A stretch of 32,000 nt of DNA. Source: Ralstonia insidiosa. GTDB taxonomy: Bacteria; Pseudomonadota; Gammaproteobacteria; Burkholderiales; Burkholderiaceae. The position numbers were made by a program, and so were the translations under genes. The notes under the pieces are model-generated. The model saw nothing but the letters and a program-made list of their open reading frames with translations, was not told the DNA's origin and made no database searches. The DNA lies in the NCBI RefSeq assembly GCF_008801405.1, contig NZ_VZPV01000001.1, forward strand, positions 2,220,115-2,252,114, given 5' to 3'. Shown here piece after piece: positions 1 to 14,817 of this stretch. Every line of letters begins with the position of its first letter. Within the stretch, counting starts at the first letter, position 1.

Positions 1-733
1 GCTCCTGCATTAGATCGAGCCCCCGGTCGCGTTGCCCAAGGACGTAGCTCTCAGGCACCGATACCTGGTCGAAGGACAATTCGCATTGCCCCTGCAGCCG
101 GCCCAGGACCGGCATCTCCCGCTCGATGCGAAAGCCCGCTGCGTCGGTGGGCACCACAATCATTGAAAAGGCGTGTTCCGGAGCGGCCTCCTGCCGGGTA
201 CGTGCCACGACCGTGACGAAGGTAGCTTGTGCGGCCCGGGAGATGTACCACTTGCGGCCTTCGACGATCCACTTGCCGCTGGTCAGCTCGGCACGGGTCT
301 GCATCGTCGCCGGCACCGATCCTGCGGCATCCGGCTCCGACATGCCGTAAGCGCCGATGCCGCTCCCCTCCACCAACGGCGTGAGGAAACGCTCGCGGAC
401 AGCAGCGCTGCCGTGCCGGCGCAGCATATGTACGTCCAGCGTGGTACGACTGCCGAAGATCGCAGGCCCGTATTCCGAACGGCCTTCCTGTTCGGCAACC
501 GGCAGGTATTCAGCCAGCGAGGCAATCTTGCCGCCGTGGTCAGCAGGATAGAACAGGCCCCATAGCCCAGCCTCCCGCGCGGTATGCGCCAGCTCAGCCA
601 TTTTTGCGGCGGCCTGGGCATCGCCCTGGGCCAGTACCGGCTCGCTCGGCACGATGAGGTCGTCGGTGAAGGTCTTGACGGCATCGGCCAGCGACTGCGC
701 CGGCATGCCGAGATGGAGTGGGAGGGCGGACAA
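1..733 (-). CDS. Acyl-CoA dehydrogenase, N-terminal and middle part. The gene continues past the left edge of the window.
   Basis: My own translation of the minus strand from TTG at 733 (AGGAGA 5 nt upstream; alternative ATG at 706) stays open to position 1. It reads ...FYPADHGG...GAYGMSEPDAAGS...GKWIVEGRKWYIS...MIVVPTDAAGFRIER..., which is typical of ACAD N-terminal and beta-barrel domains. It is absent from the ORF track because it has no stop inside the window. Confidence 0.75.
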   Translation of the reverse strand, partial: MSALPLHLGMPAQSLADAVKTFTDDLIVPSEPVLAQGDAQAAAKMAELAHTAREAGLWGLFYPADHGGKIASLAEYLPVAEQEGRSEYGPAIFGSRTTLDVHMLRRHGSAAVRERFLTPLVEGSGIGAYGMSEPDAAGSVPATMQTRAELTSGKWIVEGRKWYISRAAQATFVTVVARTRQEAAPEHAFSMIVVPTDAAGFRIEREMPVLGRLQGQCELSFDQVSVPESYVLGQRDRGLDLMQE

Positions 734-750
734 TGTCTTCTCCTGCGCGA

Positions 751-2412
751 TCAATGGGATATCCCGATGCCGAGTTCGAGAAACGCAACTTCCGCAGCTA
801 GCAGTTTCTTGTCCACCTTGCCGGCGGGTGTGAGTGGGAAGCGGCGCATGTAGCGCAGGTACTCGGGAAGCTTGTTGGTTTCCAGCCCCTTGCTGCGCAG
901 GTAACCAGAGATCTCGGCCAATGCCGGACGCGCCACGCCGTCGCGCATCGTCAAGCACAAGCACACGCGCTGCCCTAGGTCGGGATCGGGCACCGGCACG
1001 CAGGCCGCGCTCACTACGTCCGGGTAGGCGGTGGCGAGGTTCTCGATCTGGACCGTGCTGATGTTCGCGCCACCACGAATGATGATGTCCTTCTTACGTC
1101 CGGCCAGCGCTAGCCGGCCGTCGGCATCGATAAAGCCAAGGTCGCCGGTATGGACCCAGCCCTCTGCATCACGATACTTCGCGTCAAGTTCCGGTGCATT
1201 GACGTACTGCATCGGAGACATCGGGCCGCGGGCAGTGATCTCTCCCACCTCGCCGTCCTGTACCGCCCGCCCAGACGCATCGACGATCCGAATGTCGCAG
1301 ACGGCGGGGTTGGGGCGGCCCACGCTTCTGAAAATGACGTCGGCCTCGTCCTCCAGCGTGTTGTGGCAATTGACGCCGTCGGCGGAACCGTAGAGGCTGA
1401 TGAAGCGGCAATCGAAAGCATTGATGCAGCGGCGGATGCTGGCTTGATCGATGACCGCCCCGCCTGAAACCAGTGCAGTCAGACTGGACTTGTCAATGCC
1501 GGCCAGCATGGGGTCGGCGGCCATACGTTGCAGCATGGTCGGCACACCGAGAACATGTGTCGGCTTGAAAGCCGAGATCGCCTCGATCGCCTGCGTCGCC
1601 TCGAATTTCGGCAACAGTGCAACCGATCCACCTAGCCAGCACAACACGCCAAAGGTTGCCGTCGAGCCGAAGGCAGAGCCGAGTGGCACAAGATACAGGC
1701 CGCGAAACGACTCGCCGTCGGGGTGCAGTCGCTGTAAAAAACGCCCGCGGCCGCCCAGCAGTGCATTGTGGGAATACGCCACAAGCTTGGGTTCCGACTC
1801 GGTGCCGGACGAAACGAGGAAACGCACGGGATCGTCGGGGCTGACCGGAGGTAAGTCTTGGGGGGCGATGGGTTGTGTTTGCAGCAGGTGATCCAGACCA
1901 TGCCAGCCCTCACGGGCGCTGCCATCGATGATCAGCACGCGTAGCGACAAGACGGTAGGCCGCAGCGATTCGATGAGCTGACACATATCAAGCTCGCCGT
2001 AAGATGGCGTCACAATCACCGCCCGCGCCTGGCAGCGTTTGAGCAGCGATTCGATGTCGAGCCGACCCCGCCCTGGCGGGAAAGGGGCAACCACCGCACC
2101 GAGTGCCGCCGCCGCCAGATCGATGGCGCAACTGTGCCAGGTGTTCGGCAACTGGTAAGCCACCACGTCGCCAGCGACGATGCCGCGCGCTTTCAGGCCA
2201 GCTGCCAGCCGCAGCGTTCCGTCGAGCAGTTCACCGTAGCTCACGCTGCCAGCAGGCGACAGCACAGCAGTTTTGCTGGGATTGCATTCGGCATGCTGAC
2301 GGAACATCTCAAAAACAGAGCGGTTCGGGTACAGGCCCCGCCGCGCCCATTCGCGGCGCAGGCCGCCAGGAACCAGATCGATGATGCCGGCAGCGTTCAT
2401 TGAAAGCTCCAA
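751..2412 (-). CDS. AMP-dependent adenylating enzyme / acyl- or aryl-CoA synthetase (ANL superfamily, EntE/DhbE-like). Candidate thioacid-cassette ligase.
   Basis: 553-aa ORF with ANL core motifs: SSGTESEPK (A3), YGSADG, HTGDLG, GRKKDIIIRGGANIS, and C-terminal PLTPAGKVDKKLL. Its start overlaps the stop of the upstream CoA-transferase gene. Confidence 0.85.
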   Translation of the reverse strand: MELSMNAAGIIDLVPGGLRREWARRGLYPNRSVFEMFRQHAECNPSKTAVLSPAGSVSYGELLDGTLRLAAGLKARGIVAGDVVAYQLPNTWHSCAIDLAAAALGAVVAPFPPGRGRLDIESLLKRCQARAVIVTPSYGELDMCQLIESLRPTVLSLRVLIIDGSAREGWHGLDHLLQTQPIAPQDLPPVSPDDPVRFLVSSGTESEPKLVAYSHNALLGGRGRFLQRLHPDGESFRGLYLVPLGSAFGSTATFGVLCWLGGSVALLPKFEATQAIEAISAFKPTHVLGVPTMLQRMAADPMLAGIDKSSLTALVSGGAVIDQASIRRCINAFDCRFISLYGSADGVNCHNTLEDEADVIFRSVGRPNPAVCDIRIVDASGRAVQDGEVGEITARGPMSPMQYVNAPELDAKYRDAEGWVHTGDLGFIDADGRLALAGRKKDIIIRGGANISTVQIENLATAYPDVVSAACVPVPDPDLGQRVCLCLTMRDGVARPALAEISGYLRSKGLETNKLPEYLRYMRRFPLTPAGKVDKKLLAAEVAFLELGIGISH

Positions 2413-4265
2413 GGAGAATTGACGCGCGTATAAGACCCGGGCACCAGGCCGGCAGCCAACCGGGGGTTGTCACGCAGTTCGCTCAAGTCATCCGGCGCGA
2501 GTGAGGCGGGAATACCGAGTGGTTCGAGCACGGCGAGCCATTCCGATGCAGTTTTCGACGACAACGCCTCGGGCAGACGGGCATGCAGTTCTGTTGCAGA
2601 TACGTCCCTACTGAGGCCGGCGGCGCCTGCTAGGGCAGCCATCGTCCGCGCATCCGGGCAATCGAGCGCGAGCCAGCCTTGGCGCGTCGGGTAGACCGCT
2701 TGCAAGACGCTGTCCGACGGCAGTGTTTCCCGCGAATGGAGCAGTGCATCCAAATCCTCAGTGCAAAGCAGGCTTGCCGCGCCCAGCAGCGACGACTCCA
2801 TGCGCAGTCCTGCAGGCAGCAACGATCGGCTCAGTAGCGCAGCGGTCACGCCTTGCGCGGCGACGGCTCCGCCCAGTACATCCAGCACGGTGAAAAGCGA
2901 TCCACCATCGGTGTGGGAGGCGCGGGCGATCTTGTGTGCGATACCGGAATAAGCCTGCACCACGAAATCGGTGCCGGGCAACGCCTGCTCGCCATCACCC
3001 CAGCCACCGGCGTATGCATACACCAGAGCCGGATTGATGCGCCGTAAATCTGCCGAATCGAGTTGCAATGCAGCGGCTTTGCCGGGCGCCCAGTTGTGCA
3101 GGAACACGTCTGCCTCTCTCGCAAGTGCGTGAATCTCGGCACGGCCATGCGCTGCCTTGATGTCGATCTCGCGCACGATTTTCGATCGGTTGAGGGCATC
3201 GAAGCGGGCGGATACACCCTCGGCTATTGGCGGTACGCCGCGCAACGGATCGCCGCCCGGAGGCTCGATGCGGATCACGGTCGCGCCGAGCATTGCCAGC
3301 AGATGGCCGGCCAGCGGCCCCTGGATGCGACGGCAGGATTCAATAACCGTCATGCCGGATAAAGGAAGCGGGCCGGTGGCGCGGTTCGAGCCATAAGGCG
3401 CGGACTCGCCTGTCTCGCTCGTGAAAGCCCATGGCCCTCGCCGCCATAGCGGATGTGCATCGATGTCCGCAGCGCGCTCTTGTAGCGAGCGCACCGGGCA
3501 GATTGCCACACCGGTATGCGCGCAGACCTCGGCGATCCGTGCATAGGGCAGACGCGCTAGCGCGTCAATCAGTGTGGCGGGCAGCGGGGCGACGGCCTTG
3601 GCGTAACGCAGCAGAAAACCATTCCAGCCCTTGCCCGCGCTTTCCATGTCGACGCCGATTTCTGACCAGAATGAGCGCCAAGGCGGCGCATCGAGCGTTT
3701 CCAGTTCGAACACCACGCCGTCGGCCGATACGAAGGGCGGCCGCTCTGTCGTCGAACTGCTGCCGGGCAGGATTTTCTCGGGCGATTCCAACGCGGTTGC
3801 GCCAGCCAGATACTGCCCAACTGCGAGCATGCCCGCCGACGCCAAAGAGGTCGAAACCCGTTCGCAGGGCACGCCTCGCCGCATCCCAAGAGCACAAGCT
3901 AGCGCCCCCTGCAGTGCTAGCGTCGCTGCCAGCGTTGAGACATAGTTCACACCTAGCGGCTGCATTCGCCCGCTGGCACGCCCGTGCACAGACATCAGGC
4001 CACATGCCGCCTGCAAAGTGAATTCGGTGGTTGCCGCCGCGCTGTCGGGCCAGCCGCTTATCTCACACGTAATGGGCGACGCATCGGGAAGCAGCAAGCC
4101 AAAGGACAGGCTGTGCCCACATTCCCATACCCGCGGCGCTATCTGTGCCATGCCCAGAACCACGCTCTGATAGTCGAGCGAAGAAGTGAGCGGCCCAAAC
4201 AGAGGGCTAGCGGTTGCCGGCAATCCTGTGATCGTGCAATGAGGTAGAAGCGGCCGCTGCTTCAT
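2397..4265 (-). CDS. Type III CoA-transferase family protein (CaiB/BaiF-like), unusually long, with a degenerate N-terminal half.
   Basis: 622-aa ORF. The C-terminal half begins LSGMTVIESCRRIQGPLAGHLLAMLGATVIRIEPPGGDPLR, the hallmark N-terminal motif of family III CoA-transferases. Its ATG overlaps the stop of the sulfur-carrier gene (ATGA). Confidence 0.8.
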   Translation of the reverse strand: MKQRPLLPHCTITGLPATASPLFGPLTSSLDYQSVVLGMAQIAPRVWECGHSLSFGLLLPDASPITCEISGWPDSAAATTEFTLQAACGLMSVHGRASGRMQPLGVNYVSTLAATLALQGALACALGMRRGVPCERVSTSLASAGMLAVGQYLAGATALESPEKILPGSSSTTERPPFVSADGVVFELETLDAPPWRSFWSEIGVDMESAGKGWNGFLLRYAKAVAPLPATLIDALARLPYARIAEVCAHTGVAICPVRSLQERAADIDAHPLWRRGPWAFTSETGESAPYGSNRATGPLPLSGMTVIESCRRIQGPLAGHLLAMLGATVIRIEPPGGDPLRGVPPIAEGVSARFDALNRSKIVREIDIKAAHGRAEIHALAREADVFLHNWAPGKAAALQLDSADLRRINPALVYAYAGGWGDGEQALPGTDFVVQAYSGIAHKIARASHTDGGSLFTVLDVLGGAVAAQGVTAALLSRSLLPAGLRMESSLLGAASLLCTEDLDALLHSRETLPSDSVLQAVYPTRQGWLALDCPDARTMAALAGAAGLSRDVSATELHARLPEALSSKTASEWLAVLEPLGIPASLAPDDLSELRDNPRLAAGLVPGSYTRVNSPWSFQ

Positions 4266-4582
4266 CTCGCGTGCTCCCTGCTTGCCTGCGTCAAGCGAAT
4301 CGCACGGCTCGACCCGCCAGCGACCGCAGGTAAGATCGTGACAGAGTCGCCTTCGCGCACAGCAGCGTCCAGTTCGCCGGAGAAGCGGATGTCGCTGTCA
4401 TTGACGTAGATATTCACGAAGCGGTGTAGCTGGCCGTCCTGCATCAGCCGTTGCTGGATGCCGGGGTGATAGCGTTCCAGATGCGCAATGATGTCGCGGA
4501 TCGTCGCTCCGCTCGCTTCAACGCGCTTCCGATCGTTAGTCAGCGGGCGCAAGAGGGTGGGGATATGAACGATGATGGTCAT
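4262..4582 (-). CDS. ThiS/MoaD/CysO-family sulfur carrier protein with a 16-residue extension after the GG motif.
   Basis: 106 aa. ...LHRFVNIYVNDSDIRFSGELDAAVREGDSVTILPAVAGG closely resembles CysO/QbsE-type carriers as I remember them. The GG is followed by SSRAIRLTQASREHAR. Start and stop both overlap neighbouring genes. Confidence 0.8.
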   Translation of the reverse strand: MTIIVHIPTLLRPLTNDRKRVEASGATIRDIIAHLERYHPGIQQRLMQDGQLHRFVNIYVNDSDIRFSGELDAAVREGDSVTILPAVAGGSSRAIRLTQASREHAR

Positions 4583-5046
4583 GACATTTCCTTCTCCGGG
4601 GTCGGAGTGGGGGAGGCAATTGAGTGTGGCGGGACGTAGTGATCAACCGTCCTGATCGATTCTTCGACGACGCAGCCTTCGAAGATGCGAAAACTGCGAA
4701 CGGCCTGTTCGCACGCAGCGTCGGTGGAGACAATGACGTAATGCGCGTGCGGCTCGGCGGCGCAGGCAATGTCGTCCCGGCTTGGATAAGCATCCGAACT
4801 GGTATGCGAGTGGTAGAGCACGAGCGGCTCTTCGCCACGCTCTTCCATCTCTTTCCAGAGGCGGAGTTGTTCGAGCGAATCGAAGCGGAAGGCTTCGGAC
4901 GATTGCGCAGCATTGCGCATCGAGATCAGCCGCATGGGGCGATTCGAGCCAACCGGGCCGGCAATGACGCCGCAGGTTTCGAGTGGGTGGTCCTGCCTGG
5001 CCTGCGCCAGCATGGCGTCGATGAGTTCGGCGAGAATAACAAGCAC
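4579..5046 (-). CDS. JAMM/MPN+ metalloprotease (Mec+/QbsD-like), predicted to unmask the carrier GG terminus.
   Basis: 155 aa with ETCG (catalytic Glu) and HSHTSSDAYPSRDD, which is the complete H-x-H-x7-S-x2-D JAMM zinc motif. Confidence 0.85.
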   Translation of the reverse strand: MLVILAELIDAMLAQARQDHPLETCGVIAGPVGSNRPMRLISMRNAAQSSEAFRFDSLEQLRLWKEMEERGEEPLVLYHSHTSSDAYPSRDDIACAAEPHAHYVIVSTDAACEQAVRSFRIFEGCVVEESIRTVDHYVPPHSIASPTPTPEKEMS

Positions 5047-5061
5047 CTTATCCTCCTTCGC

Positions 5062-6231
5062 TCAATAGCCTGGCAGCGAGGGATCAACTTCTTTGATCCA
5101 CGCGAGAATGCCGCCATCTAGGTTCCAGAGCCGGGTAAAGCCCTGTTTTTGCAGCGCTAACAGAACTTGGCGGGAGCGCGCGCCGGATTTGCAGTGCAGG
5201 ACAATTGGGGCGTTTCGATCAAGCTGCGAAGCGAACTCCGGCAACATTGCCCGGTCCTTAGGAATGTGTTGTGCCCCGGGGATGCGCACGATGTCCCATT
5301 CGGTTGCTTCGCGCACGTCGATCAATTGGAAGTTGTCGCCGCGATCCTGCCAGCGCTTGAGTTCGGGCGCGCTGATGGAGGGGGGCTCAGCATCTTGATC
5401 GCTCTGACGGCGCAGGCCGCAGAACGCTTGGTAGTCTGTTAGCGCAGCAATCGGCATGCGCTTTGGATCGCGTCGCAGCGGAATGAAGCGATAGCTCATG
5501 TCTAGCGCATCGTAGACAGCGAGCCGGCCCAGCAAAGTATCGCCCAGGCCTGTGATGAGCTTTACCGCCTCCGTGGCCATCATCGCGCCAATCGACGCGC
5601 ACAGGATGCCGAGCACGCCGCCTTCAGAGCAGGACGGAGCAAGTTCGGGCGGCGGTGGCTCAGGGTACAGATCTCGATAGTTGAGCCCGGCGTCGTCTGG
5701 TGCTTGCTCCCAGAACACCGAGGCCTGCCCCTCGAAGCGGAAGATGGAGCCCCAGACATAGGGCTTGCCTGCCAGCACGCAGGCATCATTGACCAGATAG
5801 CGGGTCGCAAAATTGTCGGTGCCATCGACAACCAAGTCGTACCCACCGAAGATGGACAGCGCATTCGACGCGTCCAGCCTATCCATGTATAGCTGGACTT
5901 TGACGTAGGGATTGATGTCGTGGATCGAGTCGCGCGCGCTTTCCGCCTTCGGCTTGCCCAAGTCGGCAACGCCGTGAATGACTTGCCGCTGCAGGTTTGA
6001 CTCGTCCACCACGTCGAAATCGACGATACCTATCGTGCCGACGCCGGCGGCCGCAAGGTACAGCAAAACTGGCGACCCTAGGCCACCCGCGCCAACGACC
6101 AGCACTCTGCTGCTCTTCAAGCGTTTCTGCCCATCGAGACCCACGTCGGGCAACAGCAGATGCCGGCTATAGCGACTGATTTCCGCCGCGCTCAAGTTCG
6201 CCGACGGTTCTACCAAAGGGAGCAGCTTCAT
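5062..6231 (-). CDS. moeZ: MoeB/ThiF-type adenylyltransferase fused to a rhodanese domain (MoeZ/QbsC-like sulfur-carrier activating enzyme).
   Basis: The track ORF runs to 6363. I trimmed it to the ATG at 6231 (MKLLPLVEPSANLSAAEISRYSRHLLLPDVG, AGGGGG upstream), which matches the usual MoeZ N-terminus. It has the GAGGLGSP nucleotide loop and a C-terminal rhodanese active site HCKSGARS. Confidence 0.9.
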   Translation of the reverse strand: MKLLPLVEPSANLSAAEISRYSRHLLLPDVGLDGQKRLKSSRVLVVGAGGLGSPVLLYLAAAGVGTIGIVDFDVVDESNLQRQVIHGVADLGKPKAESARDSIHDINPYVKVQLYMDRLDASNALSIFGGYDLVVDGTDNFATRYLVNDACVLAGKPYVWGSIFRFEGQASVFWEQAPDDAGLNYRDLYPEPPPPELAPSCSEGGVLGILCASIGAMMATEAVKLITGLGDTLLGRLAVYDALDMSYRFIPLRRDPKRMPIAALTDYQAFCGLRRQSDQDAEPPSISAPELKRWQDRGDNFQLIDVREATEWDIVRIPGAQHIPKDRAMLPEFASQLDRNAPIVLHCKSGARSRQVLLALQKQGFTRLWNLDGGILAWIKEVDPSLPGY

Positions 6232-6235
6232 CGCA

Positions 6236-6433
6236 CTACCCCCTACGCTCATTAATCGAACACAGACAGTCGTCTCCCTGTCCGTGAAGCGGCATGACCG
6301 ACAGTGAGCGCGTTGTATAGAAAGCGTAGCCATGCCACACCGCCAGCGCGGTGATGGCGGCAACGTTGAAGCAGCGCATTACAAGGAAAAACTGGGCGAG
6401 TCGAGACAACTCGCGCCTGGTAGCGAACGGCAT
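6236..6433 (-). CDS. Hypothetical 65-aa protein, a possible first gene or leader of the sulfur-relay operon.
   Basis: ATG at 6433 is preceded by AGGAG with a 7-nt spacer. The stop TAG lies 4 nt before the moeZ-like ATG. GC3 is about 68% by my count. There is one hydrophobic segment (FFLVMRCFNVAAITALAVWHGYAFY) and a Cys-containing tail (GDDCLCSINERRG). I recognise no family. Confidence 0.3.
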   Translation of the reverse strand: MPFATRRELSRLAQFFLVMRCFNVAAITALAVWHGYAFYTTRSLSVMPLHGQGDDCLCSINERRG

Positions 6434-6629
6434 GGTGCAGCTCCTGATCAAAGGGGAACGTATCGGGTGCGCAGCGATGGACCGCGCCTGGCATGCAGCG
6501 AGCAGCGGTCATGTCGCCAAGGGCACGGCCCGGCGTATTCAGTGCATCAACCCGACGGACGTCCCGTTGGATTTATGCTTGCTCTCCGGCAATGAACACC
6601 GGCGGAGCAAGGCCATAGGCGTGCGACGG

Positions 6630-6652
6630 CGTGCCGCTCAAGCAGCGGCACG
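6630..6652 (-). terminator. GC-rich stem-loop after the DUF2946 gene (possible attenuator or terminator, no U-tract).
   Basis: CGTGCCGCT-caagc-AGCGGCACG: a perfect 9-bp stem with a 5-nt loop, about 15 nt downstream of the DUF2946 stop. Confidence 0.3.
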
Positions 6653-6666
6653 AACGCCAGCAGCGA

Positions 6667-7062
6667 TCAGGAAAGCGATGGAGGAGCGCGGGATTGCGGC
6701 GCGGCCCAAACAAACAGCGGGCGCGGCGACTGGTAGTAGAGCACGGGCCGCATGGGCGTCCCGTTCAGAAGGGGAAGATGGAATTCAGCCGCAGGAGGAA
6801 GTCCCACCGCTCCTGCATGCGTGAAGCAGAAAGGGCAATGTTCGGTCGGTATGGACTTGGCAGGCGCGGAGGACGTGCTGCTTTGCTCGCCCTCGACCTT
6901 GATCAGCCTGGAGCCCTTGACCGAGCAAACCTGGACCCACAAGTCATCGGCCCCCTTGGTGGCAGACAGCGCGAAAGAAATGAACGGCGCAAGCGCCGCC
7001 AGCAGGACCGCAAAACATACGATCCAAGTGGCAACGTAGCGTGTGTCCCGGTTCATTTCCAT
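6667..7062 (-). CDS. DUF2946-family exported protein (HCPFC motif), a family commonly found next to metal-related TonB-dependent receptors.
   Basis: 131 aa with an N-terminal signal/TM segment (VATWIVCFAVLLAALAPFISFALSA), ...WVQVCSVKG... and EHCPFC. This matches my memory of the DUF2946 signature. Confidence 0.65.
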   Translation of the reverse strand: MEMNRDTRYVATWIVCFAVLLAALAPFISFALSATKGADDLWVQVCSVKGSRLIKVEGEQSSTSSAPAKSIPTEHCPFCFTHAGAVGLPPAAEFHLPLLNGTPMRPVLYYQSPRPLFVWAAPQSRAPPSLS

Positions 7063-7434
7063 ATGATTATTTTATCATCGGCGTCATGCAGTCGAGCGAA
7101 AACCTTGCTGTCTCACATGCGCAAGTTGAGCCGACGATCGGTGACGAAGATGCCGTCAAGTTAATAGCTGGGATGCTGCAGATGATCTAGTGACAAATTG
7201 CCGCGGGGAAAAGAATGGGATCTGTTTTTACTGGCCCAATTTTATTCCCCACGTCTTCATGCTGCATATCGCCAAACGAATGTGGGTCATGACTTGCTGT
7301 GCTAATCGACCGATGATTTGAGTTGCCTCTCCCATATGGTGTGGGGCAATAGCCTGTTGGCCGTATTTGAGTCAGCGCGTTCACGCGTGCCATGTGCTCG
7401 CGTTCATGAGACGGCGTTGCTGCGATCTTCCTGC

Positions 7435-9540
7435 CTAAAAATTCCAGACAATACCTGCACGCAGCGTGCGGGGCTCGGCCGGGTGGATGTGGTGGTCATT
7501 GATGCCTGTGGCCACGCCATTGGCATCCAGCGGTGATGCTTCGCCCTTGAGCAAAGAGGCATAGTAATAGTCGATGTCGTTCACTTTCTTGTTGAGCGCG
7601 TTCAGCACCTCAACAAACACGCGCACGTTCTTCTGCACCCGGTAGCCGAGCTTGAGGTTGACCAGGAACGACGATGCAGAACGTACGCTGTTGTCTTCCA
7701 CCAGCGGGCGTGGGCCGAAGTAACGCAGGCGCGCGCCCAGTGTCCAGCGTTCGTGCGCCCACGAGACGCCGGCCGATGCGGTGGTCTGGATGGCTTCGGG
7801 AATGTAGTCGCCTACCGGATTGCTGTCGCGAAAGCGGGCGCGCGAGAAAGCCGCATCCGCATCCAGGATCAGCTCCGGCAGCGGTGTGTAGTACGCGGCC
7901 AATTCCACGCCAGTGCGGCGGCTGGGCCGGCTTGGCTCAGTGGTGCCCGTGTCGCCCGAGAAGACAAGCTCGGAGCCAATGTCCAGCCGCCACAACGATG
8001 CGGAAAGCTGCAGGTTGGGTGCGAGCTCCCGCGTGCGCACGCCGATCTCGTAGCCGGTGGCGGGTACCAGCACTGACACCTTCTGCACAGGGTCTCCGCT
8101 CACGGGGTCGACGGTGGTGGTCGCGCCGCGCACGTCGTTGCTGTGATAACCCCGGCCCCAGTTCATGAACACATCGGTGCGCGCCGTGGGCGACAGCACC
8201 ACGCTTAGCTTGGGGCTGACGATGTGGTCAGACCCGCTGCCCGAATTGAGCGGGTTGCTGCTGGCCACGTTGTACCAAAACTGGTCTGCCCGCACGCCAG
8301 CAATGGTGCGTAACCACGGGAGCCACTGCGTGCTGTTGCGCAGGTAGAGCGCGGTGCTGGTTTCGTTCACGGTGTCGCTGCGCACCAGTGCGTAGGGCTG
8401 GCGTGCCTCCGTGTTGCTGAGGCTGATCGGGTCGAGCCGGTCAAACCGAGTTTGCGAGCCGAACTCGGTTTCGCTCTCGCGCCCTGCCAATGTCCCCAGC
8501 CACGTGCGTGACGCATTCACACCCGTGGTGACCCGGTTCTCGAACTGCTCGAACTGGTCTCCCTGCACGGGGTTGTTGAGCGCATAGGTGAAGTCGGAGA
8601 ACAGCTGCAATCGGCTCTTGATGACGTACGCATTGGCCTTGAGCTGTCCGTCGGCTAGGGGGCGCAACCAGTCGACCGACAGGCTGTAGCGCGAGGCGGC
8701 CCCACCATCGGTCGGGTCGATGGCGCCAAAGCGCGAGATGAGTCCTTCGTTGATGGCGCGCAGCGGCACTTGGTCGGTCGACTGCCACGCGTTCTTGTAC
8801 GCCATGCCGGTGATGCTTACACGCTCGCCGCCGCCCAGCGGTACGGTGTAGCGCAGCACACCGTTGAGCTTGTGCACGCCCTCGGGCACCGTCCACGGGC
8901 CGTTCTCGCCCAGCCACTCGAAGCCGTAAAGCAGCGTGCCGGGGCCGACGGTGTTGGCGTTGGCCAGCAGGCCGCGCCGGTAGTTGTGCTCACCCAGTTC
9001 GAACTGCGCAATACCCTGCGGCAGGCGGTCGACATAGTCGATGCGTACCGCGCCGGCAGCGGAAAAGTCGCCTTCTTCCGCAAAGTAAGTGCCTTTCTTA
9101 TAGGCAATGCCGCTGACCAGCTCGGGGATGACGAAGTTGAGATCGGTGTAGCCCTGACCATGCGCGTTCGTGCGCATGTTGACCGGCATGCCGGCCACGG
9201 TGGTGGCCAGGTCTGTGCCGTGGTCGAGGTTGAAGCCGCGCAGGAAGTACTGGTTGGCTTTGCCGTCGCCGCTGTGCTGGGTGACGATCAGGCCTGGTAC
9301 CGTCTCCAGCAGTTCGCCCGGTCGCAGCAGGGGCCGGTTCTCCAGTTGGGCGCGCGGCACGTAGCCCTGGTTGGCCGCCTCACCCGTGGCCGCAGCGGTG
9401 GCTGCAGAGCCGCTGACGGTGGTGGCCTCCAATTGCACCTCGGGCTGTTGCACGCCGCCCGCATGGGCAGCACCTGAATGCACCAGGGCATAGCCCAGCC
9501 CCCACAGCGCTCCGATCGACCACGCCTGACTCGCACGCAT
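7435..9540 (-). CDS. TonB-dependent outer-membrane receptor (metallophore or metal uptake).
   Basis: 701 aa with a signal peptide ending AHA, plug-domain motifs (LLETVPGLIVTQHSGDGKANQYFLRGF), a long beta-barrel, and a C-terminal aromatic residue (...LRAGIVWNF). GGGAG RBS upstream. Confidence 0.9.
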   Translation of the reverse strand: MRASQAWSIGALWGLGYALVHSGAAHAGGVQQPEVQLEATTVSGSAATAAATGEAANQGYVPRAQLENRPLLRPGELLETVPGLIVTQHSGDGKANQYFLRGFNLDHGTDLATTVAGMPVNMRTNAHGQGYTDLNFVIPELVSGIAYKKGTYFAEEGDFSAAGAVRIDYVDRLPQGIAQFELGEHNYRRGLLANANTVGPGTLLYGFEWLGENGPWTVPEGVHKLNGVLRYTVPLGGGERVSITGMAYKNAWQSTDQVPLRAINEGLISRFGAIDPTDGGAASRYSLSVDWLRPLADGQLKANAYVIKSRLQLFSDFTYALNNPVQGDQFEQFENRVTTGVNASRTWLGTLAGRESETEFGSQTRFDRLDPISLSNTEARQPYALVRSDTVNETSTALYLRNSTQWLPWLRTIAGVRADQFWYNVASSNPLNSGSGSDHIVSPKLSVVLSPTARTDVFMNWGRGYHSNDVRGATTTVDPVSGDPVQKVSVLVPATGYEIGVRTRELAPNLQLSASLWRLDIGSELVFSGDTGTTEPSRPSRRTGVELAAYYTPLPELILDADAAFSRARFRDSNPVGDYIPEAIQTTASAGVSWAHERWTLGARLRYFGPRPLVEDNSVRSASSFLVNLKLGYRVQKNVRVFVEVLNALNKKVNDIDYYYASLLKGEASPLDANGVATGINDHHIHPAEPRTLRAGIVWNF

Positions 9541-9569
9541 CCACCCACTCCCTGACGCTTGATATTTGT

Positions 9570-9596
9570 GTATGAAGATTTATGCAAACTTCATAC
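9570..9596 (-). promoter_or_regulatory. NikR-type operator (GTATGA-N15-TCATAC) overlapping a putative promoter of the TonB-dependent receptor gene.
   Basis: Perfect inverted repeat GTATGAAG...CTTCATAC, 30-56 nt upstream of the receptor ATG and directly downstream of nikR. On the minus strand, TTGCAT (9606-9601), a 16-17 nt spacer and CATAAA/ATAAAT (about 9584-9578) put the -10 inside the operator. The E. coli nik operator as I remember it is GTATGA-N16-TCATAC. Confidence 0.7.
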
Positions 9597-9637
9597 CAAC
9601 ATGCAAGTTTGGCGTCACATGCTTGCCAGTGATGGGC

Positions 9638-10081
9638 TCAATGCGGGTGATGGTGGTGGTGCCCGTGGTCGTCCGGGGTGCCCGAGGTCATGATCAGGTT
9701 GAGCTGGCCTTGCTTGACGCCGCGCTCGCTGCTTATGGCATCGGCCAGACGGCGCACGGCACTGGCAGGCCCACGCAGGATGACGGTCTCGATGCAGTGC
9801 TCATCATCCAGATGCGCGTGCATGGTGGACACCGTCAGGCCGTGGTGGGCGTGCTGGATGCGCGTCAGCCGCTCAGCCAACTCACGCTCGTGGTGGTTGT
9901 AGATGTACGACAGGTTGGCCACGCAGGGGCCATCTTCGTTGTGCGATTCTCGCCAGCGGTCCAGGTGCACGCGCAGGAGGTCGCGTACCGCTTCCGAGCG
10001 GTTGGCGTAACCGTGCTCCGCCATCAGCCGGTCAAACTCGGCGGCCAGCGCATCGTCCAGAGAGATCGTGAAGCGTTCCAT
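9638..10081 (-). CDS. nikR: Nickel-responsive regulator NikR (ribbon-helix-helix plus ACT-like metal-binding domain) with a His-rich tail.
   Basis: 147 aa. MERFTISLDDALAAEFDRLMAEHGYANRSEAVRDLLR is the canonical NikR RHH N-terminus. It has conserved His/Cys in the C-domain (HHERELA..., HAHLDDEHCIE) and a DDHGHHHHHPH C-terminus. Confidence 0.9.
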   Translation of the reverse strand: MERFTISLDDALAAEFDRLMAEHGYANRSEAVRDLLRVHLDRWRESHNEDGPCVANLSYIYNHHERELAERLTRIQHAHHGLTVSTMHAHLDDEHCIETVILRGPASAVRRLADAISSERGVKQGQLNLIMTSGTPDDHGHHHHHPH

Positions 10082-10300
10082 AGTGGGGCATCAAGGCACC
10101 CGCTTTGTGCATTGCCCGGGGGTGGGCTAGGCAGGGCAGGCAAGTGGTTCGATTGTACTGAGCAGATACGCCCGCGCACGCGAGTGGAGTTCTTATGGGA
10201 GCTTGTACCGATCTATCGGGATAGTGGACTTTCAAAAGTCCATCACACATGATAACTATTCTTATCGCAATAGCTGCATTGAAGCACTAAACTGCCTTCT

Positions 10301-12001
10301 ATGAAAACGCGTCTGCTTCCCGTTCATCCCTCGGTCGACACCCCACCTGATTTCCCCGACACCGCCGAACTGGCGGCGCTGCGTGCCTGGCATGCTGGTT
10401 TGTCCACCCGCGAAGCCGTTGAGCGGTACCTGGGCGAGCGCCGGGTGCCAGGGCAGTCCTCGCGCAGCGTGCTCAGCCGCATCCGGCTCCAGCTCGCCAC
10501 GTTTGCGCGCCAGCGGCAGCGCGAGGACCTGGCGGTACTGTTTGAGATACCAGCGGCTGAGCGCGCCAAACAGGGCAGGGCGGCTGACCAGGCGATCGAA
10601 CTGCTTCGCACGCTGCCGCTGCCAGCCCCGCTGATCAGCGATGACGTGGAACGATGGCTGGACGCGCGCGCCGTCGCCGCACTGCGGGCCGTCGGCATCG
10701 ACACCCTGGCGGATCTGACCGTCCGCGTGCCGCGCCGGCGTCGTTGGTGGGCGGCCATTCCTGGGCTGGGGCAGGCTGGTGCGCGGCGGATCGAGGCGTT
10801 CTTTGCCGAACACCCGCGATTGACCGAGCGTGCCCGGGCGCTGATCGCTGCACAGGTCCGCGGTGTGGTGGTGCCCTGGGAGCAATTGCGGCTGCCGCAC
10901 GAAGTCGACGGCTCGCAAGGGCAATTCCGTGCGCCGCGCGCGACCTGCGTGCTCACTGCCGACAACGACTACGAGGCCGTCCAGGCCTGGCTTTCCCTAC
11001 ACGAATCCCCCGCAACCCAGCGGGCGTACCGCAAAGAAGCCGAGCGCTTGATGTTGTGGGCGATCGTCGAACGCGGTCGGCCGCTATCGTCACTGACCAC
11101 CGAGGATGCAATCGCCTACCGTGGCTTCCTGCGTCGACCAACGCCGCGAGAACGCTGGGTCGGGCCGGCACGCCCGCGCACATCCGTCGAGTGGCGGCCA
11201 TTCACGGACGGGTTGTCTGCGCGCTCGGTCGCCTACGCGTTGTCCGTGTTGGGGGCCATGTTCCGGTGGCTGATTCAGCAGCGCTACATGCTGGCCAACC
11301 CGTTCGCTGGCGTCAAGGTGCGCGGCGGCGGCAGGACTGCCGCGCTGGATGCCTCGCATGCATTTAGCGACGGCGAATGGGCGCTCGTGCGCACGATTGC
11401 CGACGGTTTGGAGTGGTCCTACGGCTGGGAAGCACCCGCCGCACAGCGGCTGCGTTTTGTATTGGATTTTGGCTATGCAACGGGCCTGCGGGCGAGCGAA
11501 CTCGTTTCTTCCAAGCTCGGTGACGTCGAAACGGATCGGCAGGGCGATCACTGGCTGAACCTGGTGGGGAAGGGGAGCCGCGCCGGCAAGGTCGCGCTGC
11601 CGCCGCTCGCGTGTTCGGCTATCGACCGCTACCTAGTAGAGCGCGGGCTGCCCGTCACGCGGTCGCGCTGGAACCCGAAGACGCCGCTGGTTGGTGGCTT
11701 GGGGTTGGATCCTGGCGGCGGGATTACGGGAACGCGGTTGTGGAGTGTGGTGCGGCGGTTTTTTGAGACCGCCGCCGATGTCATCGAGAACGACCATGCA
11801 GTAATGGCTGAGAAGCTACGCAAGGCCAGCCCACACTGGATGCGGCATACGCATGCCACTCACGCACTCGCGCGCGGTGCGGAACTGACCACCGTGCGGG
11901 ATAACCTGCGGCACGCGTCCATCTCGACGACGTCGATCTATCTGCATGGTGACGACGTGAAGCGGGCTCGGCAGATCAATGCGGCTTTTGCGGCAGAATG
12001 A
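10301..12001 (+). CDS. Tyrosine recombinase / phage-type integrase with a long (about 200 aa) N-terminal extension containing a helix-hairpin-helix-like segment.
   Basis: 566 aa. Catalytic region: ATGLRASEL (Arg I), HWMRHTHATHAL (H-x-x-R), LRHASISTTSIYLH (nucleophile Tyr). The N-terminal IPGLGQAGARRIEAFF is HhH-like. No clear SD at the ATG. Confidence 0.85.
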   Translation: MKTRLLPVHPSVDTPPDFPDTAELAALRAWHAGLSTREAVERYLGERRVPGQSSRSVLSRIRLQLATFARQRQREDLAVLFEIPAAERAKQGRAADQAIELLRTLPLPAPLISDDVERWLDARAVAALRAVGIDTLADLTVRVPRRRRWWAAIPGLGQAGARRIEAFFAEHPRLTERARALIAAQVRGVVVPWEQLRLPHEVDGSQGQFRAPRATCVLTADNDYEAVQAWLSLHESPATQRAYRKEAERLMLWAIVERGRPLSSLTTEDAIAYRGFLRRPTPRERWVGPARPRTSVEWRPFTDGLSARSVAYALSVLGAMFRWLIQQRYMLANPFAGVKVRGGGRTAALDASHAFSDGEWALVRTIADGLEWSYGWEAPAAQRLRFVLDFGYATGLRASELVSSKLGDVETDRQGDHWLNLVGKGSRAGKVALPPLACSAIDRYLVERGLPVTRSRWNPKTPLVGGLGLDPGGGITGTRLWSVVRRFFETAADVIENDHAVMAEKLRKASPHWMRHTHATHALARGAELTTVRDNLRHASISTTSIYLHGDDVKRARQINAAFAAE

Positions 12002-12051
12002 AATCAAGGCCGCAATGGCCCGAAAGCCATTACCAATGGAGTCCGACCGTT

Positions 12052-12441
12052 ATGAAGCCGACCTTCCAGGAGCGCCAAGAACTTAGAAGTCAGTTTGCCA
12101 ACGATGTCGACAGGATGGTGCTTTGCTTGCAAGCGACTGCCGTCACCGCCACAGATGATGAAGTCGTCCAGGCTTGGGCTGAGTACTCCGACGACAACCG
12201 TGCTGGTTGGCTAACTCTTCCAGAAAGTGATGAGACCTTACGCCAGCTTCTGATCAAGTATTTGACAATAACAAGGACACGACTCGTTTGGCGCGTCACC
12301 GGCGTCGAAGCAACGGACGGGACCGGCGATTTCATCGTCCCGCTGCCATCGGAACTGCTTGAACAGTTGGGGTGGCAAATCGGCGAGGAATTGGCGCTTG
12401 AACAAGTTGAACCCGGCACCGTGCGGTTGCGACGCACCTAG
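12052..12441 (+). CDS. Hypothetical protein with a C-terminal AbrB/MazE/SpoVT-like (swapped-hairpin) segment.
   Basis: The track ORF starts at 11998. The ATG at 12052 has GGAG upstream. The C-terminus DFIVPLPSELLEQLGWQIGEELALEQVEPGTVRLRR resembles SpoVT/AbrB antitoxin-like DNA-binding domains. GC is lower than the flanks. Confidence 0.5.
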   Translation: MKPTFQERQELRSQFANDVDRMVLCLQATAVTATDDEVVQAWAEYSDDNRAGWLTLPESDETLRQLLIKYLTITRTRLVWRVTGVEATDGTGDFIVPLPSELLEQLGWQIGEELALEQVEPGTVRLRRT

Positions 12442-12675
12442 GCAGTGTCTCCGCGGCGCGGGGAAGGTCAAAAGTGGTTACGGACAGTCTTAACAGAATC
12501 GTGTCCCTAAAGGAACTCAACGATATTGGGGCACGCAACGCAGGTACCAAATGGCACAAGCGGTCGAATCTGACATTACGACGTAGGGTTCCGTTGGAAA
12601 GTGGCGAATTTCGACCCATCTTTCCGTTGGAGCGGTGTGTTTGCGTCACATCTCGGCCCTGCCTTTTTACTACGA

Positions 12676-12703
12676 AACGCGTGTAATTTGCATTATGTTA
12701 AAT
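12676..12703 (+). repeat. dif-like site, prophage attL (AACGCGTGTAA-TTTGCA-TTATGTTAAAT).
   Basis: The last 11 nt are identical to the XerD arm of E. coli dif (TTATGTTAAAT). The XerC-arm position partly matches GGTGCGCATAA (6/11). The 17 nt at 12687-12703 are repeated exactly at 21888-21904. Confidence 0.7.
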
Positions 12704-12726
12704 CACGACGCAAATTGTGGGCGCGT

Positions 12727-12972
12727 CTACAACAGGCGCTGCGTGCAATCCAGGCACGCGCGGAACCGGCAACCGCGTGACCGGCAACACATCAGCAAGT
12801 CCAGCACCTCCCTCTTCGAAACGCCTGCATCGAGCAGGCGTTTTTTCTTCTTCTCGATCTTCCTGTAGTAGCGCCTACGCGGCGCGTCTTGGATGCCACG
12901 GCGCAGATGCCGGATGTGCCAATAAAGGTTCCGGATCTCGCGCGCCAGCGCCCGCTTTTCATCGTCAGACAC
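12727..12972 (-). CDS. Hypothetical 81-aa basic protein (uncertain).
   Basis: GTG start with AGGGG upstream and high GC3 (about 80% by my count). The helical basic sequence MSDDEKRALAREIRNLYWHIRHLRR... However, it runs antisense through the plus-strand terminator and the phage-form repressor tail. Confidence 0.35.
   Translation of the reverse strand: MSDDEKRALAREIRNLYWHIRHLRRGIQDAPRRRYYRKIEKKKKRLLDAGVSKREVLDLLMCCRSRGCRFRACLDCTQRLL
12820..12850 (+). terminator. Rho-independent terminator on the plus strand.
   Basis: AACGCCTGC-atcga-GCAGGCGTT followed by TTTTTTCTTCTTC. It lies about 40 nt after the TGA (12778-12780) that would end the repressor ORF in the circularised phage. Confidence 0.6.
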
Positions 12973-13020
12973 TTCGCCCCTGCGTGTTATCTTTACGCAA
13001 CACTAGCAATGGGGTGCGCG

Positions 13021-13518
13021 ATGCGCAACATCAACCTGTGGACGATTTTGATCTGCCTTGCCGGCGGCCTATACGTCTACGAGTACTACCCGCGAAACGG
13101 CGCCAAGATCGAAATTGCCATCCCGGCAGTCACCCATCAGGAACCGGCCGTAGCACCTGCACCTGAGCCGCCAAAGCCCGCACCAGTAGTCAACACACAG
13201 CCCACATACACGCCACCGCCACCAGCACCGGCGCAGCCACAGCAATCGGGCAGCATCGATCCGTGGACGGCCGAGCTAGCGCGCCAAGCTGACGCCCGCA
13301 TCGCACGCCAACGCGGCGAGTGGGCAGCGCAAGACCGGCAAGCCGCCCAGGTACAGGCAGCGCAAGCAAACGCCGCTGCAGCAACCTGCATCGGTCTACG
13401 GCAAGAGAAAGAGGGAATTTTGGCGAGCCAACGCCACGGTGGGACGGCTCAATGGATGAACTATCTGAACGACCGGTTCCACACCGTCTCAGACGCGCTG
13501 TATCGCAACCGCTGCTGA
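13021..13518 (+). CDS. Hypothetical membrane-anchored protein with a proline-rich linker (prophage accessory).
   Basis: Trimmed from the 12889 track start to the ATG at 13021: MRNINLWTILICLAGGLYVYEYY (N-terminal TM), then PAPEPPKPAPV...PPPPAPAQPQQ and a Gln/Ala-rich C-domain. Weak RBS. Confidence 0.5.
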   Translation: MRNINLWTILICLAGGLYVYEYYPRNGAKIEIAIPAVTHQEPAVAPAPEPPKPAPVVNTQPTYTPPPPAPAQPQQSGSIDPWTAELARQADARIARQRGEWAAQDRQAAQVQAAQANAAAATCIGLRQEKEGILASQRHGGTAQWMNYLNDRFHTVSDALYRNRC

Positions 13519-13771
13519 AAATCCCAGCTGGAGATCCACACGATGGTTTTTGAAGGCCCGCGCCAGGACTAGCTTTGCTGGCGATTTTTCCTGCAGGAGA
13601 AAAGCGGGCTTGCAAGAGAGGGGGTGTTTGGATGTGGGCAGCCTTGTATGTACCTACCTGGTCGTACCCGCTGCTCGGTCCCGCCAGCCGCACTGGCCGT
13701 GCGACAACCGCCAGAGATCCCGCCCACGCCCCACCTCTACCGCCTGGTCATGGGCGCGGACACTCCCGACG

Positions 13772-13975
13772 CTAGTCCATATCGATCACGTCATCGATCG
13801 AGTGCAACGAGATCACCAAGCGCAGGCGCGACACCCCACGCTCCTTCATCGCACGCTCTATCAACTCCTCAAGCGTCACCGACCAAGCATCAGAGCCCCA
13901 CGAGGTGTCAGCCAAAATCGAAAAGCGGTCAGGCACGCCACCAGGAACCTCGTTGATTCGCGTCAGATCCAGCAT
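13772..13975 (-). CDS. Hypothetical 67-aa acidic protein, third gene of the prophage accessory operon.
   Basis: The ATG lies 1 nt after the stop of the upstream ORF, with GAGG upstream. I recognise no family. Confidence 0.5.
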   Translation of the reverse strand: MLDLTRINEVPGGVPDRFSILADTSWGSDAWSVTLEELIERAMKERGVSRLRLVISLHSIDDVIDMD

Positions 13976-13976
13976 C

Positions 13977-14537
13977 TCAGCCTCGCAAGACTTTTTTCGT
14001 TACGCGCTTACGCGTAACAGGTTTGACAGCAACTTCACCACTGCCGACCTTGCCATAGACCTGCAGCAGCTCGATCTTGTAGTTATCAATCGCCGCACGA
14101 GCTGAGACCAGCTCACGCGCCAACTGCTCAATCTCCCGCTCAGCATCAACGTTCTTATCGAGCTGAACAGACAACTCGTAACGCACGCGAAACAACTCGT
14201 CGCAAACCTCAGCCAAATGATCGTTCTCACGGTCGCGCCCGTTCAAATAGCCTTCCAGCTCATCAATACGCTTACGAGCCTCCACCAGCTCAGCACGCAA
14301 CCATTCCACCTCGAGGCGGCACTCATCGTAGGCATCAACGTCGGAAAGCATTTCCGTTACAGTCATGCACTTAGTAACGGATTTAGCCTCAACCGGCTGC
14401 TGAGCCTTGCGACGAGCTCGAAACGCTGCCTGCCGCTCTGCATTGCTCATCGCGTGCGCCTTGCGCGGACGACCACGGCCACGCTTCTGCTCTACACCAG
14501 CCAGCTCGCCAGTCACGTTATCCGTTACGTCACGCAT
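13977..14537 (-). CDS. Hypothetical 186-aa protein with an AT-hook-like GRGRPRK motif and a long coiled-coil region.
   Basis: The track ORF extends to 14624. I trimmed it to the ATG at 14537 (MRDVTDNVTGELAG...), 1 nt after the upstream ORF stop. KRGRGRPRKAH is followed by heptad-like LRAELVEARKRIDELEGYL...EIEQLARELVSARAAIDNYKIELL. Confidence 0.6.
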   Translation of the reverse strand: MRDVTDNVTGELAGVEQKRGRGRPRKAHAMSNAERQAAFRARRKAQQPVEAKSVTKCMTVTEMLSDVDAYDECRLEVEWLRAELVEARKRIDELEGYLNGRDRENDHLAEVCDELFRVRYELSVQLDKNVDAEREIEQLARELVSARAAIDNYKIELLQVYGKVGSGEVAVKPVTRKRVTKKVLRG

Positions 14538-14538
14538 A

Positions 14539-14733: not shown

Positions 14734-14758
14734 ATTCGCCTCCCGATCTGATGAATCT

Positions 14759-14787: not shown

Positions 14788-14817
14788 TTACTGTTACACT
14801 TTTCCCCGTAACGAAAA

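Follow-up and report, generated by a model that had tools for sequence, protein, structure and literature searches.

The first 10,081 nucleotides of a 32,000-nucleotide stretch of Ralstonia insidiosa DNA (contig NZ_VZPV01000001.1, positions 2,220,115 to 2,252,114; hereafter the window) probably hold two adjacent and separable modules, namely a copper-starvation-induced system for a thiocarboxylate chalkophore resembling PDTC, or pyridine-2,6-di(thiocarboxylic acid), and, beside it, an independent nickel-repressed receptor. This reading, to which a probability of roughly 0.58 is assigned, builds on what was observed of gene content, motifs and synteny, of the boundaries of the modules and of the conservation of the operator, from which we infer the copper and nickel responses, the structure of the product and the metal it binds. 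Module A (7435-10160) comprises nikR, its operator and the gene for TonB-dependent receptor 1 (TBDR1) and would act as a nickel-repressed outer-membrane uptake unit. Module B is read as one operon that runs from 7062 leftwards past position 1, starting with cruR, a leader, moeZ, and the genes for a JAMM protease, a ThiS-like carrier, a CoA-transferase, a ligase and an acyl-CoA dehydrogenase, and continuing with those for an MFS exporter, a GH88-like protein, a periplasmic "copper uptake system-associated" protein, a second TonB-dependent receptor (TBDR2) and PCuAC. An earlier sequence-only reading had joined both modules into a single nickel-responsive thiocarboxylate metallophore system.

The genes left of position 1 were read from the R. 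insidiosa chromosome CP016022.1 (locus L001, 21.9 kb), where window position x corresponds to L001 position 14266 - x. Every protein of the integrase-bracketed island that contains both modules was searched against a comparison set of 80 loci, each centred on a homolog of the CoA-transferase in a species-representative genome, supplemented by R. solanacearum, a close metagenomic relative (L088) and Pseudomonas ogarae F113. Domains were called with Pfam and NCBIfam, and leader RNAs with Rfam at gathering thresholds. All domains named in the sequence-only reading are confirmed by Pfam (Acyl-CoA_dh, AMP-binding, CoA_transf_3, ThiS, Prok-JAB, ThiF with Rhodanese, DUF2946, Plug with TonB barrel, and RHH with NikR_C), and the motifs it reported, GAGGLGSP, HCKSGARS and HSH-x7-S-x2-D, are all present.

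The thioacid operon and its leader

The DUF2946 gene at the head of the operon, previously taken for that of an accessory protein, is, judging from its family match and motif geometry, a CruR-type copper-responsive leader open reading frame (ORF). Its CXXC occupies residues 76-79 and its RAPP residues 125-128; 45 residues separate the two motifs, three more follow RAPP before the stop, and this geometry (CXXC-45-RAPP-3) equals the published values for Bp2923. A hydrophobic stretch, WIVCFAVLLAALAPFISFALSA, is visible as a candidate N-terminal export signal. In Bordetella pertussis, copper at the CXXC of the nascent CruR (Bp2923) chain relieves a ribosome stall at RAPP, and this relief leads to Rho-dependent termination in a long intergenic region, switching the downstream operon off (PMC9426467, PMC12914433). 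CruR homologs are described as the first genes of copper-related operons, with long spacers behind them.

Such a spacer separates cruR from moeZ. The start of moeZ is the ATG at 6231 behind a GGGGG ribosome-binding site, giving a 389-aa product; the start formerly placed at 6433 lies in the wrong frame. What had been counted as a tenth gene is a 65-aa ORF (6236-6433), out of frame with moeZ and lacking any homolog outside R. insidiosa, and it is treated as spurious, leaving nine genes in 1-10081, all on the minus strand. Of the two gaps described around the DUF2946 gene, the one of 372 bp (7063-7434) stands, and the one of 233 bp becomes 435 nt with the corrected start. Within this leader, a terminator-like hairpin followed by a U-run at 6396-6414 has a predicted energy of -14.1 kcal/mol (z = -2.96), and a modest local stretch with more C than G spans 6386-6506. 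The equivalent cruR-moeZ spacer measures 168-435 nt in relatives, and Rfam finds no riboswitch or known RNA in the leaders at gathering thresholds. By analogy with B. pertussis, the genes behind the leader may be subject to copper-dependent, Rho-mediated termination.

The position of the leader gene is conserved. R. solanacearum, Rugamonas fusca, Burkholderia alba, Paracidovorax anthurii and L088 each carry a cruR-type gene directly upstream of moeZ, and in six Burkholderiales lineages it is the first gene, directly before moeZ; in Acidovorax it stands upstream of a TBDR2-P154-moeZ arrangement, P154 being the copper uptake system-associated protein. These Burkholderiales relatives share the pattern of CXXC, 42-45 residues, R(A/G)PP and three final residues. 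In Pseudomonas, several loci from the putida and morbosilactucae groups have DUF2946 variants with a PRASP ending; these adjoin TBDR2-P154 and, in one arrangement, precede an AraC gene and moeZ. R. solanacearum additionally possesses a second DUF2946 gene downstream of TBDR2 (L086/L087:19819-21881), without a clear RAPP, which heads genes for a 353-aa protein and a redoxin of the AhpC-TSA type; this operon resembles the copper-related CruR operons of the literature.

Behind the leader, the operon encodes a thioacid cassette with a dedicated sulfur relay, as the sequence-only reading proposed: an ANL ligase and a two-domain type III CoA-transferase together with MoeZ, JAMM and ThiS-like proteins, in synteny with pdtFGHIJ. 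MoeZ matches NCBIfam NF005902 over residues 2-389 with 622.7 bits, slightly under the equivalog cut-off of 647. The sulfur carrier ends in AVAGG followed by 16 further residues, SSRAIRLTQASREHAR, which bears out the description of a CysO-like carrier with a masked GG. Tails that differ in sequence also occur in R. solanacearum and L088, and none is found in F113 PdtH; the JAMM protease is predicted to trim the tail and thereby expose the GG. The CoA-transferase gene adjoins that of the ANL synthetase through a 4-nt ATGA overlap (2397-2400), the ligase most likely starting at the ATG at 2400, within an ORF spanning 751-2412, which gives an exact match to the deposited ANJ72420.1. This overlap replaces the 16-nt one formerly described at 2397-2412 and is the third of its kind, those at 4579-4582 and 4262-4265 being real. 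The CoA-transferase and ligase would convert a carboxylic acid into a thiocarboxylic acid via the acyl-CoA, to judge from characterised cassettes.

The ligase is 62-74% identical to proteobacterial homologs, and the CoA-transferase 55-57% identical to Pseudomonas 90%-identity clusters, one of which contains F113 PdtI. The acyl-CoA dehydrogenase, whose start is uncertain (754, 733 or 706), measures 397-404 aa in full in loci L001 and L002 and is 51-59% identical to the product of the gene after pdtJ in Pseudomonas loci. The core of MoeZ, JAMM, ThiS, CoA-transferase, ligase, acyl-CoA dehydrogenase and MFS transporter, usually joined by a 376-aa protein (P376), is kept in about 50 proteobacterial loci. 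The cassette itself is already known, because Dong et al. 2018 (PMC6006322) list exactly this pair (ANJ72421.1/ANJ72420.1, row 33 of Supplementary Data 2) within the 175-member "thioacid group" of PtmU4 homologs in a sequence-similarity network, and because Iyer, Burroughs and Aravind 2006 reported gene neighbourhoods of the PdtF-G-H-I-J kind from Ralstonia, Nitrosomonas, Nitrosospira and Hahella, for which they predicted siderophore pathways. The earlier statement that no NikR-controlled thioacid pathway had been characterised holds for the regulation; the two genes themselves, however, already stood in a catalogue of thioacid cassettes.

The genes left of position 1, all on the same strand, encode the rest of the acyl-CoA dehydrogenase, the MFS transporter, P376, P154, TBDR2 and PCuAC, followed by a second integrase. 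Every junction from moeZ to TBDR2 is an overlap or a gap of at most 34 nt. P154 (154 aa, secreted; L001:17067-17531) passes NCBIfam NF033672, "copper uptake system-associated protein", with 124 bits against a cut-off of 50; it is always found together with DUF2946 and a strong TBDR2 ortholog, and all three co-occur in 11-12 distinct genomes. A PCuAC copper chaperone (Pfam 5.6e-35) closes the operon. P376 matches no Pfam or NCBIfam family and shows only a distant resemblance to GH88 unsaturated glucuronyl hydrolases (4e-12). Scaffold-forming genes, which the sequence-only reading suspected left of the window, are absent from the 21.9-kb locus L001, where copper-uptake genes stand instead; their absence fits a precursor of primary-metabolic origin, which is what Iyer, Burroughs and Aravind 2006 propose for PDTC. 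TBDR2 orthologs, 40-49% identical, lie beside the core in Burkholderiales, in Nitrosospira and Nitrosovibrio, and in some Pseudomonas. On the best reading of this conservation, TBDR2, which travels with the thioacid genes, and not the NikR-boxed TBDR1 formerly proposed, would be the cognate receptor of the operon.

Some further features of these genes were seen across the comparison set. Homologs of P154 have in common a signal peptide and the conserved motifs W-x-Q-x3-GGRALL and C-x-GD, and they often end in a His-rich tail. The thioacid core turns up with striking frequency both in ammonia oxidisers (Nitrosomonas, Nitrosospira and Nitrosovibrio; L007-L030, L045, L049, L052) and in methanotrophs (Methylobacter and Methylococcales, L010 and L021; Methylosinus protein P0011), two groups with a high copper demand imposed by ammonia monooxygenase and particulate methane monooxygenase. 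In Nitrosospira the TBDR2 ortholog lies just upstream of moeZ, and neither DUF2946 nor P154 is seen within 10 kb. Actinomycetes (Streptomyces, Micromonospora and Pseudonocardiaceae; L056-L085) carry in many loci a five-gene set of CoA-transferase, ligase, acyl-CoA dehydrogenase, MFS transporter and P376 without local MoeZ, JAMM or ThiS, with PCuAC-like ORFs nearby in L074, L075 and L079.

The nikR-TBDR1 module and the island around it

The perfect NikR palindrome reported before the TonB receptor is confirmed as GTATGA-N15-TCATAC, with the extended form TGGTATGA...TCATAC, and it ends 29 nt upstream of the TBDR1 ATG. The spacing of the E. coli operator is N16. NikR is 43% identical to its E. 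coli counterpart, and the columns of H76, H87, H89 and C95 are kept in the alignment of the two. Ni-bound NikR would occupy the palindrome and shut TBDR1 off, and TBDR1 is accordingly predicted to be a NikR-repressed outer-membrane importer of nickel or a nickel complex.

TBDR1 orthologs are 77-91% identical throughout Ralstonia and Cupriavidus. Three further loci have a nikR homolog, 82-95% identical, directly upstream of such a receptor: L096 in Cupriavidus, L097/98 on a metagenomic contig from Burkholderiales, and L099 in Ralstonia sp. UBA689. All three contain a perfect GTATGA-N15-TCATAC in the spacer between nikR and receptor, followed by unrelated genes and no thioacid genes, so that the perfectly boxed pair is known from four contexts, three of them without thioacid genes. 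DNA homology with UBA689 (86%) begins 79 bp upstream of nikR and breaks off precisely at the stop codon of TBDR1. Where TBDR1 orthologs occur without nikR (R. mannitolilytica, R. pseudosolanacearum and C. necator pHG1), the palindrome has decayed. Because the boxed pair recurs without thioacid genes and the homology ends at the TBDR1 stop, the NikR box is assigned to the pair, and nikR, box and TBDR1 are, on this comparative evidence, a self-contained 2.7-kb two-gene module separate from the thioacid operon.

The converse comparison does not connect nickel to the operon. All of the approximately 85 other thioacid loci examined lack nikR; NikR boxes with at most one mismatch occur nowhere else in the island, nor at a relevant place in 90 other loci; and cruR and moeZ have no NikR site with N15 spacing. 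The proposed nickel link to the thioacid operon is not upheld. On the C. necator H16 megaplasmid pHG1 (L091/L092), a TBDR1 ortholog of 81% identity lies about 4 kb from the nickel permease gene hoxN and from hoxJ, beside integrases and with neither nikR nor an intact NikR box, an arrangement that fits a nickel role of this receptor family independent of any thioacid pathway.

Between the modules, the metagenomic L088, which is the closest relative of the operon, has no TBDR1 upstream and yet has in common with R. insidiosa a conserved block and, beside the start of cruR, a -10-like TA(A/G)AAT. Because a locus without TBDR1 shares the part of the spacer nearest cruR, this suggests that cruR keeps its own promoter. 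The features of the window are collected in Table 1.

Table 1. Features of the window, with coordinates in window positions
Feature	Coordinates	Strand	Basis or remark
Acyl-CoA dehydrogenase (PdtO-like)	1..754	-	Pfam Acyl-CoA_dh_N/M 1-706; C-terminal part cut by window edge
ANL acyl-CoA synthetase/ligase (PdtJ/PtmA3-like)	751..2400	-	Pfam AMP-binding and AMP-binding_C; ANJ72420.1
Two-domain type III CoA-transferase (PdtI/PtmU4-like)	2397..4265	-	Two CoA_transf_3 stretches, 622 aa; ANJ72421.1
ThiS/MoaD-like sulfur carrier (PdtH/QbsE-like)	4262..4582	-	Pfam ThiS; GG masked by 16-residue tail
JAMM/MPN+ metalloprotease (PdtG/QbsD-like)	4579..5046	-	Pfam Prok-JAB 1.9e-28; HSH-x7-S-x2-D
MoeZ-type E1 adenylyltransferase and rhodanese (PdtF/QbsC-like)	5062..6231	-	Pfam ThiF and Rhodanese; ORF 5062-6363
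cruR-moeZ leader	6232..6666	-	435 nt; candidate copper-dependent premature termination site
CruR-type (DUF2946) putative copper-responsive upstream ORF	6667..7062	-	PF11162 72.6 bits, cut-off 23.7
TBDR1-cruR intergenic region	7063..7434	-	372 nt; likely cruR promoter
TonB-dependent receptor TBDR1 (ANJ72427.1)	7435..9540	-	Plug and barrel domains
NikR operator GTATGA-N15-TCATAC	9570..9596		Sole match in 32 kb, 0.01 expected by chance
nikR (ANJ72428.1), ribbon-helix-helix repressor with His-rich tail	9638..10081	-	RHH_1 and NikR_C; NF002815 181 bits, cut-off 83
DUF3701-type tyrosine recombinase, one island edge	10301..12001	+	Pfam DUF3701 and Phage_integrase

Integrase genes mark both edges of the island, the second lying beyond PCuAC, left of the window (L001 20392-21423); no convincing flanking repeats that could serve as att sites and no tRNA target were found. 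At the junction between the DUF3701 integrase and a prophage, a 147-aa ORF (11998-12441) has a weakly MazE-antitoxin-like C-terminus, a match obtained with the 129-aa L001 product. The stretch 12500-21000 represents an integrated filamentous, inovirus-like prophage with a Zot-family protein (14818-16296, minus strand) and a G2P-type replication protein (19048-20238, minus strand); GC skew is strongly negative across 13-21 kb, and the metagenomic copy L002, syntenic in other respects, does not have the prophage. Genes for a LysR regulator, an MFS transporter and a DUF817 protein follow at 22360-26138, and biotin genes at 27996-31417 (bioD-like, AAA_26; bioF-like, Aminotran_1_2; bioA-like, Aminotran_3) belong to the ordinary chromosome past the prophage.

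Proposed function and competing explanations

Under scarce copper, the ribosome would stall on the RAPP of nascent CruR, blocking termination in the leader and allowing the operon to be expressed; with copper available, the CXXC would sense the metal, the stall would be relieved, and transcription would end in the leader, as extrapolated from the work on CruR. The enzymatic steps are modelled on Qbs and Ptm enzymology: the JAMM protease would remove the 16-residue tail of the carrier, MoeZ would adenylate and thiocarboxylate the exposed GG, the ligase would form the acyl-CoA of a carboxylic acid, most likely a dipicolinate-like one from primary metabolism, and the two-domain CoA-transferase would turn this acyl-CoA into a thiocarboxylic acid. 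Gene content further suggests that the MFS protein exports the resulting PDTC-like chelator, that TBDR2 re-imports its copper complex, and that P154 and PCuAC receive the metal. By analogy the product may be called PDTC-like.

Several points weigh against this scheme. CruR function has been shown in one organism only, and a TBDR2 profile compared with the PDB retrieves only generic TonB receptors (best YncD, PqqU and Fiu, at 1e-15 to 1e-17) without placing it with CrtA. PDTC binds many metals and is described in Pseudomonas as a secondary, iron siderophore, and the product need not be PDTC at all, since pdtL, pdtM, pdtP, pdtE and pdtC are missing. At the junction of the modules, prediction yields no intrinsic terminator in the TBDR1-cruR spacer, and with all genes co-directional, nickel-controlled read-through into cruR is possible. 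A weak NikR-like palindrome, GCATGA-N17-TCATAT (7061-7089; two mismatches and wrong spacing), also overlaps the cruR start and a -10-like TAAAAT. This palindrome is the only conceivable direct handle of NikR on the operon. As a NikR site it is probably a chance occurrence, being wrongly spaced and not conserved in L088.

One competing explanation holds that NikR controls the whole block and that the product is a nickel-scavenging metallophore imported by TBDR1; nikR, TBDR1, cruR and the biosynthetic genes do point the same way on one integrase-bracketed island, no intrinsic terminator is predicted after TBDR1, and the weak NikR-like site lies at 7061-7089. PDTC-type ligands also bind Ni(II) tightly. 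Yet the nikR-TBDR1 pair is a discrete unit in its four contexts, the other thioacid loci do without nikR, and the operon has a leader ORF of the copper type as well as a conserved receptor, TBDR2, of its own, so that this explanation appears improbable and the nickel-metallophore reading less likely than the copper one. It is just as improbable that the system serves both metals, with copper gating synthesis via the CruR leader and the NikR-controlled TBDR1 importing the nickel complex of the same molecule, possibly adding read-through into cruR; a dual copper and nickel system of this kind, if real, would be the first endogenous small-molecule ligand pathway under CruR control.

An ordinary PDTC-type iron siderophore cluster, with the copper genes as bystanders or a side specificity, is unlikely, even with synteny and 50-73% identity to F113 pdtFGHIJ-ON and with the described siderophore role of PDTC in its favour. 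Fur-like boxes (3-4 of 19 positions mismatched) do exist at the core in other lineages, at L041:7937 in Thauera and L043:3448 in Pelagibacterium, both immediately upstream of moeZ, and at L047:3385 in Arenicella, all in loci without cruR; by finding them the scan shows that it works. The same scan finds no match with up to three mismatches in the window, and its best hit anywhere on the 21.9-kb island mismatches at 6 of 19 positions, which is chance level, so Fur control of the R. insidiosa operon was rejected. The PdtC activator is likewise absent, and the operon opens with cruR and closes with the genes of the NF033672 protein and of PCuAC. Judging by these boxes and leaders, the thioacid core seems to be iron-regulated in the Thauera, Pelagibacterium and Arenicella lineages and copper-gated in Burkholderiales. 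Least probable of all is a thioacid with a non-metal role (an antibiotic or a thioester intermediate), or a relay serving some other pathway, beside merely clustered metal genes. Thioacid cassettes do occur in antibiotic clusters (those of platensimycin/platencin and yatakemycin), and the actinomycete five-gene sets lack TonB receptors. In R. insidiosa, however, gaps of at most 34 nt couple the biosynthetic genes to those of an exporter, of a TonB receptor and of periplasmic copper proteins, and the same synteny recurs across many proteobacteria; because the export, receptor and chaperone genes are coupled in this way, a non-metal role is unlikely.

Comparison with known systems

Among the closest known systems is the pdt cluster of Pseudomonas. 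In P. ogarae F113 this cluster contains pdtK (receptor), pdtP (methyltransferase), pdtE (MFS), pdtL (804 aa), pdtM (849 aa, with an aminotransferase domain), pdtF, G, H, I, J, O and N, and a P376 homolog. The R. insidiosa operon follows the same order F-G-H-I-J, then the acyl-CoA dehydrogenase (O), the MFS transporter (N) and a GH88-like protein (360-376 aa across the two), with 51-73% identity to Pseudomonas loci for F-J, O and N and 39-47% for P376; both have a TonB receptor in the cluster and no dedicated scaffold-forming genes. Locus L001 differs in lacking PdtC (an AraC activator), PdtE, PdtL, PdtM and PdtP, which F113 possesses without exception, and in having a CruR-type leader, the NF033672 protein, PCuAC and a carrier with a masked GG.

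In thioplatensimycin biosynthesis, PtmA3 and PtmU4 are likewise an ANL synthetase beside a two-domain type III CoA-transferase, PtmU4 sharing only about 36% identity with pdt OrfI (Dong et al. 2018, PMC6006322). R. insidiosa differs from that system in encoding the sulfur relay in the same operon and in its setting of metallophore transport rather than antibiotic synthesis. The thioquinolobactin system of P. fluorescens (QbsC/D/E) also combines a MoeZ-like E1, a JAMM protease, a carrier extended past GG, and ligase and CoA-transferase homologs, and its JAMM protease reportedly trims the carrier beyond GG. In contrast, R. insidiosa has no kynurenine/xanthurenate scaffold genes, its tail comprises 16 residues rather than 2, and its regulation is different.

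In regulation, the nearest parallel is CruR of B. pertussis with the TonB copper transporter CrtA/BfrG (PMC9426467, PMC12914433), which shares the DUF2946 first gene, the CXXC-45-RAPP-3 geometry, the long spacer, a TonB receptor and PCuAC-type genes in the operon, and the absence of a Fur box. The R. insidiosa leader differs in preceding a six-gene biosynthetic block, and no PepSY_TM gene is present. A 2026 study of CruR-regulated CrtA transporters reports that no endogenous metallophore clusters were identifiable for them, and the supplements of the CruR/CrtA papers make no mention of ThiF, CoA-transferase or Ralstonia; no link of a thiocarboxylate pathway to CruR, chalkophores or NikR was found in the literature. 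NikR-regulated TonB nickel transporters, by comparison, are an already known kind, including predicted betaproteobacterial members given in a 2024 paper: FrpB4 and FecA3 of Helicobacter pylori likewise have a NikR operator before the receptor gene, as do, by prediction, Daro_3944, Rgel01002199 and Bll6948. TBDR1 of R. insidiosa differs in the N15 spacing of its operator, against N16 in E. coli, and in nikR lying immediately upstream in the same direction.

In its predicted regulation and in its transport genes, the R. insidiosa locus departs from a kind of pathway that is otherwise known. Thiocarboxylate metallophores (PDTC and thioquinolobactin) have been treated as iron siderophores of Pseudomonas, and here the same core stands with a copper-type leader and copper-uptake proteins, an arrangement shared by R. 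insidiosa, R. solanacearum (a plant pathogen) and several other Burkholderiales, and seen in some Pseudomonas with DUF2946 variants as leaders. Should the copper reading be correct, the operon would supply a candidate chalkophore, neither methanobactin nor diisonitrile, for CruR-regulated TonB copper transporters, and one chelator pathway would have been re-plugged into iron (Fur), copper (CruR) and possibly nickel circuits by the swapping of short regulatory modules.

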